From the IMG/VR virus record IMGVR_UViG_3300030433_001432, positions 1-43,271 of that record: 43,271 bases of DNA. The stretch is one strand, 5' to 3'. How positions within the stretch are numbered: the first letter of the stretch is position 1; each line of letters opens with the position of its first letter. A model generated the notes under the pieces. That model worked only from the letters and a program-made list of their open reading frames with translations. It was not told where the DNA came from and did not search any database. The translations under genes were made by a program, and so were the position numbers. This DNA comes from a virus. Taxonomy: Duplodnaviria; Caudoviricetes. Of the stretch, positions 2,850-8,121 are shown piece after piece.

Positions 2850-4505
2850 TCAATAACCAAAATCTGAATCAGCAGGTTTGAATATATCACGTTTGTAACC
2901 TCTAAGTCTTTCTAATGGGCTTTCCATTCTTGGTCTGCTCATTATCATATATCTTAATGCATCGTATGCATGGTCAGAAGCGTGTGTATCTACATCCTCT
3001 GGATTCGTTTTTGATAACGGTATGCTTTGTAATTCTCTTATTAAGTTTTGGCAAGTATTGAATATTTGCAACTTAGGTCTACCGTTATCTTTTACTTTTA
3101 AAAATTCATGTATCTGAATCTTGCCTTGTATACGATTTTTATCGGCACGTCTTAACTTATGACCTGCTCGTAACAAAGCTTCTCCAACGGTAGGACCAGT
3201 TGTACCTGTTCTAGCCCAAGCTGCAGTATCCAATACACCATTTACTGAAAATGGGTCTACCACTTCCATATCTGTTATTATACTACCTAATTCTTCACCT
3301 GTCAAGCCTTTTTTGTATAATTCTCTATAAATTATTAAAGTTCCATCATTTATATCAATAGTTCCCCATAAACAACAACTTTCAGAGGCATAACCGTAGT
3401 CAATACCTTTGGTTCTTTCCCATGATAAAGGTATCTCAAATGGTGGTATTACATGTACGGTAGGGTCAAATTCTACAAAAGCAGCACCTTCAGCGACATC
3501 CCAGTTACCTTCTAATAACTGTCTACGCTGTATTGGCGGTAACGAATTAAGCATTTGTTCGTAAATACCATCATCAGCTAAGTATGGATTATCTGCTAAT
3601 TTAGCTGGAATAAATTTACGACTTAGTCCATCTGTACCTAAAAAACTTTTATTAGGTTCATAAGGGTCTATGTATCTACGTTTTACCCACGTAGAGCCAA
3701 CACCACCGGGGTTAGCAGTGCAACGTAAATAAGTTTTAATTTCAGGGTCAGTTGTTCTAAGTCTAGATGCTAGATAGTTCCAACTAAACTCTGTAGGTAA
3801 ATGGGTAATCTCATCAAAGCCAATCCAAGAGTATGCTTGTCCTTGATAACGATAAACATCTGCATCTCTTTCTAAGAAACCAAACTCTATCTTTGCACCA
3901 CTTGGAAAGTTCCAAAGCTTTTCTACTTCTCTAAACTTAGCTCCGGGAAATGCTTGAGGATATAGTTCACGAGATTTATCAATCATCTCTCGTAGTTCTG
4001 GCATAGACCTACGTAAGATTAAGGCACGGTGAGCTTTACGGTGAGCATATCTCAGTGGGTCAACCAACATTGCGTATGATTTTCCACCCCCTGCTGCACC
4101 ACCGTAAAGGACATCTTTTTCGTCTGCAGCTAAGAAATCTGTTTGTGGTCCTTCGTTAGCATGAAATAAAACATTAGCATCTTCTAAATCTTTTTTAACT
4201 GTTGCAGGTAATTTGTCTAACTCATCAGTGGTAGCAATATTTTTTTCATTACCACTTAAATCTTGTAAAGTATTTTTTTGTTTTTTTAAAGACTTACGAG
4301 CATTGTTAAGTTTCTGCTCAATCTTTTTAATATTTTTTTGTTTTCGAGAGATTGCTCGATGAGCTGCAAACTTTGCTTCATCTTTTAAAGCTGGTCTACC
4401 ACTTTTTTTTCTAGGTGTACCGTCTTTTTTTAAAACAAAGTTACCTTCATTATCTTGCAAGTAAAGATGAGGATTCTCTTCCCAGTCTTTCAGTTCTTGT
4501 GCCAT
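2850..4505 (-). CDS. terL: Terminase large subunit
   Basis: Walker A YGGAAGGGKS, Walker B IGFDE, coupling motif TANPGG, nuclease motifs GIDYG and DHAYDALRY. Confidence 0.95.
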   Translation of the reverse strand: MAQELKDWEENPHLYLQDNEGNFVLKKDGTPRKKSGRPALKDEAKFAAHRAISRKQKNIKKIEQKLNNARKSLKKQKNTLQDLSGNEKNIATTDELDKLPATVKKDLEDANVLFHANEGPQTDFLAADEKDVLYGGAAGGGKSYAMLVDPLRYAHRKAHRALILRRSMPELREMIDKSRELYPQAFPGAKFREVEKLWNFPSGAKIEFGFLERDADVYRYQGQAYSWIGFDEITHLPTEFSWNYLASRLRTTDPEIKTYLRCTANPGGVGSTWVKRRYIDPYEPNKSFLGTDGLSRKFIPAKLADNPYLADDGIYEQMLNSLPPIQRRQLLEGNWDVAEGAAFVEFDPTVHVIPPFEIPLSWERTKGIDYGYASESCCLWGTIDINDGTLIIYRELYKKGLTGEELGSIITDMEVVDPFSVNGVLDTAAWARTGTTGPTVGEALLRAGHKLRRADKNRIQGKIQIHEFLKVKDNGRPKLQIFNTCQNLIRELQSIPLSKTNPEDVDTHASDHAYDALRYMIMSRPRMESPLERLRGYKRDIFKPADSDFGY

Positions 4506-4746: not shown

Positions 4747-4808
4747 ACTATTATACTAATTTATTTTAAATAAGTTGAGCAGTTTTATTTCTTACTCAGG
4801 AAGTTAGC

Positions 4809-4970
4809 TTAGTCAGTCCATTTCACACCACGGTAAATACCGTTAGTGGCTTTTTTAGACTTACTAGGTTCTGCATCATGCTTGATACCTCTGTAGATAC
4901 CCGGTTGAGCTTTTACTTTTTCAACGTGAGTATTTTCAGGAGTTATCTTGATACCTCTGTAAGTAGCCAT
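4809..4970 (-). CDS. 53-aa YRG-repeat peptide (DUF4278/Downstream-peptide-like)
   Basis: MATYRGIKITPENTHVEKVKAQPGIYRGIKHDAEPSKSKKATNGIYRGVKWTD has three YRG[IV]K motifs and a GGAGG RBS; not in ORF track. Confidence 0.85.
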   Translation of the reverse strand: MATYRGIKITPENTHVEKVKAQPGIYRGIKHDAEPSKSKKATNGIYRGVKWTD

Positions 4971-5026
4971 ATCATGCCTCCAGTTTTCATAGGTTAATAT
5001 TAAGTCATATTTAAATGACAGCCTAT

Positions 5027-5138
5027 GCGTTCCTTCGGTAGATGTCGGTCTCTGTTCCCATTACTGGTACTTAGCTTACCCCTATCATAGGGAGGTTTTC
5101 CTTTCTAGCCTACTTCCGTCTCTTGCGAGATGAACGAA
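5027..5138 (-). ncRNA. Glutamine riboswitch-like element (glnA RNA motif) with expanded P3
   Basis: Minus strand reads UUCGUUCAUCUC-GCAA-GAGACGGAAGUAGG...UCUACCGAAGGAACGC. P1 is CGUUC/GAACG, P2 is UCUC/GAGA with a GNRA loop, and the E-loop strands GGAAGUA/GAA are present. It lies directly upstream of the YRG peptide. Confidence 0.8.
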
Positions 5139-5234
5139 TTATTGATTATGACAAGCTAATGATTGTTGTCTAATCAATTCTTTAAGCTCCTCTTTAGAAA
5201 GAACATTTGCTTGTTCTTGTGGAGAAAGCTTCAT
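5139..5234 (-). CDS. 31-aa hypothetical peptide
   Basis: MKLSPQEQANVLSKEELKELIRQQSLACHNQ; ATGA overlap with upstream ORF; stop abuts the riboswitch. Confidence 0.5.
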   Translation of the reverse strand: MKLSPQEQANVLSKEELKELIRQQSLACHNQ

Positions 5235-5374
5235 TTTTTTTTGTCTTTGTTAAAAATTTTATCCCAGTTATCAGCAATTTGTTCATCACTAACAACTTGA
5301 CCTCGTGCTTTATTACGAGCCATGCGATTACGTTTAGCTGCTGATTTTACTCCAAAATGTCCTGCGTGTGGCAT
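5231..5374 (-). CDS. 47-aa basic hypothetical peptide
   Basis: MPHAGHFGVKSAAKRNRMARNKARGQVVSDEQIADNWDKIFNKDKKK; starts 3 nt after the iscU stop. Confidence 0.6.
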   Translation of the reverse strand: MPHAGHFGVKSAAKRNRMARNKARGQVVSDEQIADNWDKIFNKDKKK

Positions 5375-5377
5375 TAT

Positions 5378-5827
5378 TTAATATCCGTAACCGTTAGGGT
5401 CTTCCCAACGTTCTGTTTGATTATGTGTTCTATGTTTTATTTTAGTTTCCCAGTTTTCTATAGCTTTACGAATACTTTCTTCAGCTAAAACACTACAATG
5501 TAGTTTGATTGGTGGTAAATCTAAAGCTGCAGCAATATCTTTATCTTTGATAGCTTTAGCTTCAGCGATTGTTTTACCTTTTAACATATCAACAAACATT
5601 GTGCTCGAAGCAATCGCAGAGCCACAACCATAAGTTTTAAACTTAACATCTGTTATTATATCATTGTCAAGTTTTAATTGCAACTTCATTACATCCCCAC
5701 AAGCCGGAGCACCAGTCATACCAGTAGCAACATTAGGGTCATTAGGGTCAAACCGACCAACAGCGTGTTTTTGTGGATTATTTAACACGCTTTCAAATCT
5801 ATCAACCACTTCTTGTGAGTATGCCAT
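5378..5827 (-). CDS. iscU: Fe-S cluster scaffold protein IscU/NifU-N
   Basis: GAPACGDVMKLQ, FKTYGCGSAIASS and LPPIKLHCSVLAE give all three Cys ligands and the HscA-binding LPPVK-like motif. Confidence 0.95.
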   Translation of the reverse strand: MAYSQEVVDRFESVLNNPQKHAVGRFDPNDPNVATGMTGAPACGDVMKLQLKLDNDIITDVKFKTYGCGSAIASSTMFVDMLKGKTIAEAKAIKDKDIAAALDLPPIKLHCSVLAEESIRKAIENWETKIKHRTHNQTERWEDPNGYGY

Positions 5828-5880
5828 TTAATCTTCAGTTAATATATTATTTATAAGCTGTATTTCTCTTTCTGTTAATT

Positions 5881-6171
5881 TTACCATTTTACCTTGTCAG
5901 CCCAATATGCTGCTGACATCTTTCCTCGTTTAATGTTTTTAGCATGACGAGCTTTAAAAGATTTACGTTTAGCTTTCATTCTTGCAGACTCACCGGGTTT
6001 AGGTTTACCTGCTGTCTTAGCTCCTTTCTGTCCAAACCTAATAGTTTTTATTTTATCACCTTCTTTAGCGACAACTATATGCGACTTCTTAGGATGATTA
6101 GGAGTTCTTTTAGGTTTATTATAACCTGAAACTCCAGCACGTTCAAGTCTTGAATCTTTTTTCTTGGTCAT
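5881..6171 (-). CDS. Small basic hypothetical phage protein
   Basis: K/R-rich; KTIRFGQKG and RKSFKARH..MSAAYWADKVKW motifs; tightly packed with neighbours. Confidence 0.8.
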   Translation of the reverse strand: MTKKKDSRLERAGVSGYNKPKRTPNHPKKSHIVVAKEGDKIKTIRFGQKGAKTAGKPKPGESARMKAKRKSFKARHAKNIKRGKMSAAYWADKVKW

Positions 6172-6425
6172 GCTTTTTTCTTTTTCTTTTTAGTTTTTCG
6201 ATGCAAACCATGCTGTGCATGTTGTTTACCCTTCGCAGTAGCTTCTCGTTTCTTTTTATTAGCTGCTGCTAACTTACGTCTACCTGCAGGGGTAGATTTA
6301 AGTTTTTTAATTTTAGCTTCCGGTGCATATACTTCTCCAGTCTCCGAGGATTTTTTACCACTCGGAGTTCGCCATTTCTGTTTAGTCCACTTACGTAAAC
6401 TACGTTGACTTTTTTTAAGTGCCAT
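6168..6425 (-). CDS. Small basic hypothetical phage protein
   Basis: SQRSLRKWTKQKWRT motif; poly-K C-terminus; overlapping start/stop codons. Confidence 0.8.
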   Translation of the reverse strand: MALKKSQRSLRKWTKQKWRTPSGKKSSETGEVYAPEAKIKKLKSTPAGRRKLAAANKKKREATAKGKQHAQHGLHRKTKKKKKKA

Positions 6426-7108
6426 TATTTATCTTTATCACTATATAAGTTATTAAATGTTTCATCTGGATTCATATAGCTTTCATGTCCTTCTGCAGAA
6501 TGTAACCACTGTGAAGGTATGAAGTCTGGTGGACCATCACCGGTTGCCCATAAAGCAGGGTTAGTAACTCTAACTCTGTTATTAGGCAAAGCTATAATAT
6601 TTCCTTTCCAAGGACAATCTTCAGTAATGTATAATACATGCGATTGTTTATGTTGAGCTGGGTCATCAGCAATACTATTATCAGTATAGTCAACAGTAAA
6701 CAAATATCTGGAAGTATAGAAATCACTACCGATTTTTGCTATCCAAGGTGAAGAACTGGTTCTATCTAGAGTAACAACTGAATGTGTTCTAGATTCGCAA
6801 TCCCACGGTTGTGCCAAATGGTTTTCCATTGGCTCTGCCCATTCATCCATAGGTATATCAGCAACTAATGCTTGTATAGGCATTCTCGCCCACATAGCAC
6901 CGCCATGTATGTTGCCCTCTTTCCAGTCATCCCTATCCATCTCGTTGCCAGTAAAAACAACTTGAAAACTTAGAGACCTATCTGGAATTGTATTTACCGC
7001 TATTGCTAGAGCATGTAAATATTCGCCATGGTATTTTAGATGATTATGGGTAAATTCCCTTCTTACCCAACACGGGAAGTGAGGGATATTACTCATCAAG
7101 TATGACAT
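6425..7108 (-). CDS. Conserved hypothetical phage protein
   Basis: 227 aa globular sequence with GGAMWARMPIQAL, DDPAQHKQSHVL and ALPNNRVR motifs. Confidence 0.8.
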   Translation of the reverse strand: MSYLMSNIPHFPCWVRREFTHNHLKYHGEYLHALAIAVNTIPDRSLSFQVVFTGNEMDRDDWKEGNIHGGAMWARMPIQALVADIPMDEWAEPMENHLAQPWDCESRTHSVVTLDRTSSSPWIAKIGSDFYTSRYLFTVDYTDNSIADDPAQHKQSHVLYITEDCPWKGNIIALPNNRVRVTNPALWATGDGPPDFIPSQWLHSAEGHESYMNPDETFNNLYSDKDK

Positions 7109-7114
7109 GTAATA

Positions 7115-7306
7115 TTACTTTTTACCGCCTCTTGCGTAGCTTTTCCTTCCTTTAGCTCCGCCTCTTGCCATACTCTTCCTTTTTTTCATCCCACCTTTAG
7201 CCATGGTTTTTCTTTTTTTAACACCGCCTTTAGCCATACTCTTTCTTTTTTTTGTACCGCCTTTAGCCATGCTTTTCCTTTTTTTATGTGTAGGTGTATG
7301 TGGCAT
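7115..7306 (-). CDS. Protamine/histone-like basic repeat peptide
   Basis: Five 11-aa repeats of the xKKRKSMAKGG type; AGGAG RBS. Confidence 0.8.
   Translation of the reverse strand: MPHTPTHKKRKSMAKGGTKKRKSMAKGGVKKRKTMAKGGMKKRKSMARGGAKGRKSYARGGKK
7123..7285. repeat. Imperfect 33-nt coding tandem repeat (about 5 copies)
   Basis: Repeated ccgcctttagccat...cttttttt units encoding the KKRKSMAKGG repeats. Confidence 0.85.
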
Positions 7307-7333
7307 TTTGCACTCCTATATTAATGGTTAAAA

Positions 7334-7630
7334 TTAAGTCTTGCGACCATGTTTCTTCCTAATAGCTGTTTTACCAGCTTTAGCAATTCTTGCTTGTTCG
7401 TGTTTACCTGCTACTTTAGCACGTTGTTCTAACACTGTCAAAATCTGTATCTTACGAGCAAAAGGTTTTTTAATTCTTTTTACTTTGGCTACGGTTGCTC
7501 GGGCATCAGCCGGAGTCTTGTATTTAATACTAACAGTATCTTTAGGATTCTCGTCAGTATATAAACGTCTGTCTGACCCTTTAGGTTTTTTACCTGTACC
7601 AACTTTAGGGTCTCTCGTTTTACGTGGCAT
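7334..7630 (-). CDS. Small basic hypothetical protein
   Basis: LYTDENPKDT and QILTVLEQRAK motifs; start coupled to the upstream stop. Confidence 0.8.
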   Translation of the reverse strand: MPRKTRDPKVGTGKKPKGSDRRLYTDENPKDTVSIKYKTPADARATVAKVKRIKKPFARKIQILTVLEQRAKVAGKHEQARIAKAGKTAIRKKHGRKT

Positions 7631-7833
7631 TATTTATAACCACCACCAGCAGCTTTGTATTGTTTAGCTAACATCTGAGCTTTTCTGGCACTCCACTGTC
7701 CGGGTCTACCACCTTTACTACCTGCTTTGATTTTATTAAACAATCTTTTACGCATAGTAGGCTTAGTATAATTACCAGCTTTATTTACTGTGCTTTTTTT
7801 TTTCGTTGTGGTTTTCTTCTTTGGCATAATCAA
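7630..7833 (-). CDS. Small basic hypothetical protein
   Basis: GQWSARKAQMLAKQYKAAGGGY motif; likely start at ATG 7827. Confidence 0.8.
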   Translation of the reverse strand: MIMPKKKTTTKKKSTVNKAGNYTKPTMRKRLFNKIKAGSKGGRPGQWSARKAQMLAKQYKAAGGGYK

Positions 7834-7905
7834 CCTTAAACATTAAATTATTAACTATATAGTAACTGATATAGAAGGCAGTAACAAAGGCAACAAAAAA
7901 TTCAA

Positions 7906-8121
7906 TCAATGTAACACCTTTTCTTTATTGTAACCTTCTGGCTCTAAGTAGTGCATTAGTCCGTCTTCAGTTACGATTTCAACAAACTCGCCTAATAATG
8001 TTAGACCATTTACTTCGGCAGCTTCTTCAGCTTCTTGTAAAGTTTCTGCAACTATATTAGGTCCAGCATACTTTTTACCGTGCTGTTCCATTTCAGTCAG
8101 ATATATCTTCATACTCATCAC
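7906..8121 (-). CDS. Hypothetical acidic protein
   Basis: 71 aa ORF overlapping the 3' end of the putative terS. Confidence 0.65.
   Translation of the reverse strand: MMSMKIYLTEMEQHGKKYAGPNIVAETLQEAEEAAEVNGLTLLGEFVEIVTEDGLMHYLEPEGYNKEKVLH

Follow-up and report, generated by a model that had tools for sequence, protein, structure and literature searches.

A glutamine-I riboswitch with a long branched P3 arm precedes a three-YRG DUF4278 peptide in a phage that probably infects SAR86

The stretch of DNA analysed here (the window) is a virus record of 43,271 bases with T7-like replication genes and an SU10-type portal. On its minus strand, a glutamine-I riboswitch aptamer, a hairpin and a Shine-Dalgarno sequence (SD) lead into the gene of a 53-aa peptide; this switch and peptide gene are referred to below as the unit or cassette (Table 1). 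The elements listed in the original prediction, namely P1, P2 with a GNRA loop, the GGAAGUA/GAA motif, the hairpin at 4988-5027, the GGAGG ribosome-binding site and a 53-aa ORF with YRGIK, YRGIK and YRGVK, were all found in place on the minus strand. The neighbouring positions 5139-8121 (minus strand), between terS and terL, form a shuffled block of small, very basic ORFs and iscU, whose content and order differ among relatives. An own promoter for the unit was considered and rejected: the sigma70-like site at 5172-5145 is part of a coding frame and is absent in the relatives L003-L008, and 10 such sites were found against 5.2±2.8 by chance.

Table 1. Features at and around the riboswitch locus of the window.
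Feature	Position	Strand	Basis or remark
Glutamine-I riboswitch aptamer, long-P3 variant	5024..5138	-	RF01739, 46.8 bits
P1	CGUUC 5136-5132 / GAACG 5032-5028	-	
P2 with GCAA loop	5130-5119	-	
GGAAGUA of GGAAGUA/GAA bulged-G motif	5117-5111	-	
G23-C60 linchpin equivalent	G5116-C5027	-	Numbering after PMC6212724
Conserved branched domain on P3	5044..5100	-	Own model R1, 57.1 bits, and covariation
Arm parts	AAAACCUC linker; hairpin P4 5091-5081; second AGUA/GAA bulged-G-like loop; hairpin P5 5067-5058; GAGACCGA	-	
Hairpin CAUAGG...CCUAUG, likely expression platform	4988..5027	-	Starts at linchpin C
Shine-Dalgarno GGAGG	4977..4981	-	Conserved context AAAACYGGAGG
53-aa DUF4278 peptide	4809..4970	-	Three YRG (Y4, Y26, Y46), pI 9.9
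Predicted peptide fold: three small beta-hairpins on flexible linkers	4809..4970	-	AlphaFold2
Small pseudoknot-like element	4772..4805	-	Loop CUGAGUAA pairs with tail UGCUC; directly behind peptide stop
31-codon ORF	5139..5234	-	Stop abuts switch; without Pfam match
Sigma70-like site	5172-5145	-	Inside 31-codon ORF
IscU	5378..5827	-	Context gene for host inference

The aptamer is of the glnA type, as had been predicted. A covariance-model search against Rfam gave 46.8 bits for RF01739 (gathering threshold 35; E = 2.9e-7), which is the sole gathering-level match in the window. The alignment covers model positions 1-53 with every core consensus letter matched, and the G23-C60 pair of the core is present. 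Since all core positions are kept, glutamine very probably binds this aptamer. Its P3 holds 70 nt where the RF01739 model has 6, and is not the simple short hairpin typical of this variable family. Judged from the alignments, this length marks a variant of RF01739 and not exclusion from it, because the 2010 family alignment already admits such rows as an unaligned loop. In the Glutamine-II class (Downstream-peptide, RF01704) a pseudoknot stands in place of P3 and the E-loop; the RF01704 score of the window is 12.1 bits against a gathering threshold of 33, with only P1 and P2 aligned. A second known aptamer within the arm was also looked for and rejected, as Rfam at E≤10 gave only RF01739, RF01704 and a chance ribozyme match, and the plain folding energy of the feature is no better than that of shuffles (z +0.62). 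The predicted combination of a glnA-type aptamer with a DUF4278 peptide is real, but it is not a cross between two riboswitch classes: type 1 with DUF4278 is the usual pairing, reported in 25 of 28 cyanobacterial genomes (PMC6212724).

As indicated by its alignment, the 70-nt insert is a conserved, covarying branched domain on P3, laid out as P3 - AAAACCUC - hairpin P4 - GG.AAGC(U)AAGUA - hairpin P5 - GAAC(A)GAGACCGA - P3. All 27 viral peptide loci have an aptamer upstream with identical insert blocks. A pattern taken from the 3' end of the insert retrieved 116 viral loci, of which 112 are long and 111 are followed by a YRG frame; many of the pattern matches are near copies, and the distinct RNAs number 61 viral and 17 cellular. 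We built a covariance model of the long arm (R1), leaving the window out of the training set. Among 51 copies aligned with it, 98.5% of cells are paired and both partners have changed in 7 of 8 pairs (112 cells, compared with 29 after shuffling; pairing in slid controls did not exceed 67%), in an alignment that is fitted to the model and whose sequences are related to one another. An independent anchored count gave several pair types in both P4 and P5, and the bracketed U and A of the layout are inserted jointly in 20 and absent jointly in 58 of 78 RNAs. When metagenomes were scanned with anchors on the 3' side and SD context only, the 119 loci comprised 110 long and no short forms, five without a detected P1 and four truncated. 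Both blocks are present in 105 of the 110 long RNAs, with a point change in one and unrelated branched inserts in four. The SD context AAAACYGGAGG accompanies a long branched P3, not always that of the window's type.

Rfam largely misses the long form (16 of 36 known copies reported, one above cut-off). Long rows are present in the 2010 glnA alignment, the insert being unaligned and unannotated there (PMC2864571, supplement 5, part 128). Our literature search, which covered the early riboswitch papers and their supplements in part, found no description of the arm, and one may be in print. Mimicry of rRNA by the arm was rejected: R1 has no match in the E. coli rrnH operon (best E 5.2), and what arm and rRNA have in common is the widespread bulged-G motif and nothing more. 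In L563, L615/L561, L620 and L651, the same three-YRG peptide is preceded by glutamine-I aptamers whose branched P3 inserts are of other, unrelated kinds. In most long copies, such as L158 at 3030-3090, the aptamer is followed by another conserved structure, GAGAAGGGUG-hairpin-GUACGAAAUCGA, which in the window's lineage is replaced by a simpler hairpin.

We then turn to the expression platform. A covarying helix starts at C60; its second pair occurs as four pair types and is formed in each of the 75 RNAs parsed. Many of the short viral copies have a hairpin that extends over the SD itself, and so do 3 of 78 long RNAs; in most long copies, the window's included, it stops 6 nt short of the SD. 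The hairpin of the window (5027-4988) has a folding energy of -9.4 kcal/mol, with 5 of 200 shuffles as good. Nearest-neighbour folding of the window RNA gave no SD switch (SD unpaired 0.37 free and 0.37 bound-like), and none that is clear across 77 long RNAs (SD opening in 32 and closing in 12). As previously reported, ligand binding reorients P3, forms G23-C60 and melts the helix attached to P1 (PMC6212724), and both DUF4278-linked switches tested in cyanobacteria turn expression on (PMC6212724, PMC6316151). SAR86 genomes also place G23-C60 switches before glutamine synthetase and before a gene leading amtB operons, where OFF would be expected; the aptamer therefore does not fix the direction. 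On these analyses we hold a translational ON switch, with the arm as lever or tuner, to be probable. Glutamine binding would swing P3 and pair G23 with C60, so that the hairpin started by C60 would open and ribosome entry be eased, while the large arm would amplify or tune the ligand-driven movement of P3. The switch likely acts on translation of the peptide alone.

The opposite direction has been weighed as well. Glutamine could dock the arm's invariant CCUC on GGAGG and turn the peptide off, in which case the peptide would act when nitrogen is scarce, for instance as a decoy by which AmtB is held open or GlnD is titrated. Of the 110 long RNAs retrieved with the insert left free, 105 indeed have the invariant CCUC, none of the short aptamers shares the SD context, SAR86 has the aptamer before nitrogen-scavenging genes too, and a decoy would suit a phage. 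We nevertheless consider this arrangement unlikely. Four RNAs carry unrelated branched inserts without CCUC, and the relative L842 keeps CCUC beside GGAGA, with no compensatory change seen; where folding does predict CCUC-SD pairing (19 of 77 RNAs), it characterizes the ligand-free form and would give ON. Of the 36 cassette genomes, 26 yielded no GlnD.

The assignment of the peptide to DUF4278 was borne out by the Pfam HMM PF14105 (29.5 bits, cut-off 25.3), whose match spans residues 3-50 of 53. The peptide falls into PHROG 5049, and the nearest Atlas clusters are DUF4278 (scores <0.9). It has no match to PF00543 (PII) at E 0.1, no predicted globular fold and, in structure searches, no PDB match. 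Three YRG motifs are present in 128 of 163 peptides and two in the other 35, mostly spaced by 20-22 residues. AlphaFold2 predicts a small hairpin around each YRG and otherwise unfolded linkers (pLDDT 73, pTM 0.24). When windows from other proteins were scored on the peptide profile, six PII T-loop windows outscored all 30 background YRG windows, a small background; they score -0.8 to 4.2, a long way below the median of 10.9 for the peptides themselves, and at position +4 the peptides mostly have K where PII has E or S. The PII T-loop traits of a YRG hairpin, an Arg at its tip and an aromatic residue at +5 are compatible with the profile and the model, again relative to 30 background windows. 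The feature belongs to RF01739 and DUF4278, and is neither glutamine-II, nor IF17 proper, nor PII.

Searching a genome collection (30 of 64 parts) with the insert pattern gave 120 matches, of which 17 are complete units and 103 are without the remaining blocks. Fifteen of the 17 are titled SAR86 and two Gammaproteobacteria, one of these within the SAR86 order; the scanned part held the long arm in no other cellular group. The four cellular units inspected are chromosomal, and three of them adjoin glnK, amtB, trmJ, suhB or secDF. Within the SAR86 order, the insert pattern occurs in 55 of 266 genomes (about 52 after three were dropped by eye), and R1 finds one copy each in 44 of 151 genomes at 67-83 bits and nothing weaker. 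The IscU of the window has its best matches in the same order (192 and 164 bits, whereas the other 33 matches among 151 class genomes do not exceed 152), with 56 of 61 in the SAR86 order. These similarities make SAR86 the highly probable host. From its distribution, the unit was likely captured from a SAR86 host; a tree of the units, in which the window was represented by its near copy L001 and the variable hairpins were left out, does not resolve the donor and forces at least two label changes.

Short glutamine switches are above cut-off in 57 of 121 SAR86 genomes and precede glnA/glnII, a GATase_2 (gltB-like) gene, a CP-ATP-grasp operon and the ORF leading amtB operons. Together with the cassette, they agree with the earlier expectation of a host outside the cyanobacteria whose nitrogen genes are under glutamine switches. 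Short glutamine-I switches in SAR86-order genomes are often tandem (L913-L935, L504, L505). The unassigned marine 'glnA-linked' switches of PMC6212724 may be those of SAR86. Among the 121 SAR86 genomes, the 326-aa GlnII-like glutamine synthetase (GS) adjoins ntrB-ntrC in three that were inspected, and GlnD is missing from whole clades.

What, then, might the peptide bind? The cassette lies within 3 kb of amtB in 21 and within 14 kb in 26 of 36 SAR86 cassette genomes, a linkage that reflects few independent lineages and is not seen in 10 of the 36; within 14 kb of type II GS it was found in 0 of 33 genomes. GlnK plugs the Amt trimer 3:3, with Arg47 at the apex of a hairpin and the three tips 31 Å apart (PMC3198391, PMC8395244). 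Our best guess is that the peptide forms three PII T-loop-like hairpins that bind the AmtB trimer. Each YRG hairpin would carry its Arg at the tip as in the PII T-loop, three per chain could reach the three AmtB pores, and the linkers could span the 31 Å between the Arg47 tips. GlnK and the peptide would thus be alike in the YRG at a hairpin tip and in threefold use, whereas the peptide differs in having no PII core and no nucleotide or 2-oxoglutarate sensing, three motifs per chain and control at the RNA level. A precedent for the shut-off of AmtB by a small protein, under nitrogen excess, is the 61-aa archaeal sP36 of Methanosarcina mazei (PMC10714827). A T-loop-type target with AmtB as best candidate remains tentative, at somewhat under even odds. 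The phage copy might keep the host feedback running, or override it, late in infection; it is not obvious how the closing of ammonium uptake would benefit a lytic phage. Replacement of a lost GlnD by the cassette was rejected as a general link, as GlnD is missing in 26 (one clade), whole in 8 and present as contig-end pieces in 2 of the 36 cassette genomes, and is also missing in a clade without the cassette.

PII-type targets would fit better than glutamine synthetase, which is disfavoured. An IF17-like inactivator of host GS switched on by glutamine has in its favour that DUF4278 is part of IF17 (PMC6212724) and that GlnE occurs in 0 of 121 SAR86 genomes (control positive in 3 of 14), so that another brake on GS could be needed. 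Yet the peptide corresponds only to the IF17 N-terminal domain, reported as dispensable for inhibition and needed for stability (PMC6316151). Judged from the DUF4278 span, the Pfam match to residues 3-50 leaves no room for the C-terminal GS-binding part. Moreover, type I GS is above cut-off in only 5 of 121 SAR86 genomes, most having the 326-aa GlnII-like, type II enzyme (359-363 bits, below the cut-off of 500), and the cassette is near that gene in 0 of 33. These points make GS inactivation improbable. Slightly less probable still is that the basic peptide (pI 9.9) binds RNA or a protease, either in autoregulation through the long arm or as a stability or degradation signal, even though the IF17 N-terminus governs stability (PMC6316151) and the arm appears to have a bulged-G motif of protein-binding type. 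YRG peptides also stand behind short, arm-less switches, which are much more frequent in viruses (an estimated 840 or so stretches) and were followed by a YRG ORF in 22 of 120 sampled loci; the PDB sequence matches to ribosomal proteins are at chance level (E 0.63-1.5).

How the unit is distributed among related phages bears on its use to the phage. The best 80 of at least 598 confirmed terminase relatives (41 of 64 parts) are 80-98% identical to the window's, and 64 of them span terS-terL; the set searched may lack very close records. Of these 64, one carries the unit: L842, in a different two-YRG version that the model matched and the regular expression missed. The unit is accessory in this phage lineage. 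Its place between terS and terL varies among twelve relatives found via the peptide, and one contig shares exactly 4809-5138 with other flanks. Such scarcity, along with the codon changes that separate eight near relatives (13 synonymous, 22 non-synonymous), might suggest passenger DNA without benefit to the phage. There is little reason to prefer this idea, given that aptamer and arm are intact, as are all nine YRG residues in 52 of 52 aligned peptides (members chosen for three YRG), and that the unit recurs in unrelated large phages and in two versions (window and L842) in the window's own lineage. At 16 of 26 loci in other phages, a phrog_138 major capsid gene, which we take to be T4-type gp23, is no more than 3 kb away, in a scan that covered 31 of 76 ORFs. 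The suggested influence on terL and portal can practically be set aside: the unit is on the same strand, probably in the same late transcript and 465 nt upstream of terL, but 63 of the 64 relatives spanning terS-terL are without it, gene order is shuffled with one to four matched genes between unit and terL in L001-L012, an RNA-library contig joins 4754 to 5246 with other DNA, and neither behind the aptamer nor elsewhere on the minus strand was a terminator found. Contigs from the RNA libraries X2 and X4 cover the cassette as a small share and stem from relatives, which is not proof of transcription. Among isolated phages (50,697 records), tblastn gave no match and blastn only chance-level matches.

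Taking the observed family memberships, the conserved arm, the chromosomal occurrence beside glnK-amtB in SAR86 and the accessory status as starting points, we put forward the following reading, with a probability of about 0.4: a long-armed glutamine-I switch and its three-YRG peptide, likely captured from SAR86, would be ON at high glutamine, and the peptide would dock on a PII target, likeliest AmtB. A bolder version, which we think unlikely, would see in the peptide a mimic of the GlnK trimer built as one chain with three prongs, so that every pore of AmtB is plugged; it would be a virus-carried and RNA-sensed replacement of GlnD/PII in the control of ammonium uptake, by which nitrogen entering infected cells would be steered. 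If true, it would give DUF4278/YRG its first function, and host glutamine, sensed by viruses of an abundant ocean heterotroph, would be their means of controlling ammonium uptake.

The closest known system is the type-1 gifB/IF17 switch of Synechocystis PCC 6803 (PMC6212724), which has a like aptamer core, G23-C60 pair, C60-started hairpin and downstream DUF4278. In contrast to it, P3 here is a 70-nt branched arm and not a short hairpin, the SD lies outside the C60 hairpin, the product is a stand-alone 53-aa peptide without the GS-binding half of IF17, and the carriers are phage and SAR86, not cyanobacteria. The type-2 (RF01704) switch before PMM1846 of Prochlorococcus MED4 likewise precedes a short stand-alone DUF4278 protein, but its aptamer class differs (12.1 bits here). 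Phage glutamine riboswitches of RF01739 are already known from Melnitz, Mosig and AG-345-P14 (PMC9004378) and from S-CREM1 and other cyanophages (PMC9964418). Those are marine phages too, including phages of heterotrophs; they are T4-like, unlike the 43-kb phage here with its T7-like replication genes, and in the covered parts of these reports the switches are linked to ssrA or to no gene, with no DUF4278 peptide or long arm described. The SAR86-assigned phage OBV_N00005 has an IscU closest to SAR86, as does the window, and the main text of that paper is without the word 'riboswitch' (PMC5332604). The switch class, the DUF4278 linkage and phage-borne glutamine riboswitches are published; new relative to the literature covered are the arm as a structured domain, the assignment to SAR86 and the hypothesis on AmtB. 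Glutamine riboswitches have been described as limited to cyanobacteria and unassigned marine DNA (PMC6212724, PMC6316151); unlike this restricted range given in reviews, they are common in SAR86. An arm placed on the helix that the ligand moves also offers a natural test of how an added domain affects a switch.

Many viral short or tandem glutamine switches precede small basic non-YRG peptides, which form several recurring families (L384-L503). Finally, the pseudoknot-like element at 4772-4805 (minus strand; also L698-L832) consists of a stem around the loop CUGAGYAW and a tail, AAACUGCUC. Its stem shows covariation, with several pair types and with pairing in 129 and 126 of 133, and 12 loci gave no Rfam gathering-level match. 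It lies directly 3' of the peptide gene in the window's lineage (L001-L012, L842) and occurs in 2 of 80 terminase loci; an estimated 7,700 or so viral stretches match it (from 1 of 64 parts), and it is also found beside tRNAs.
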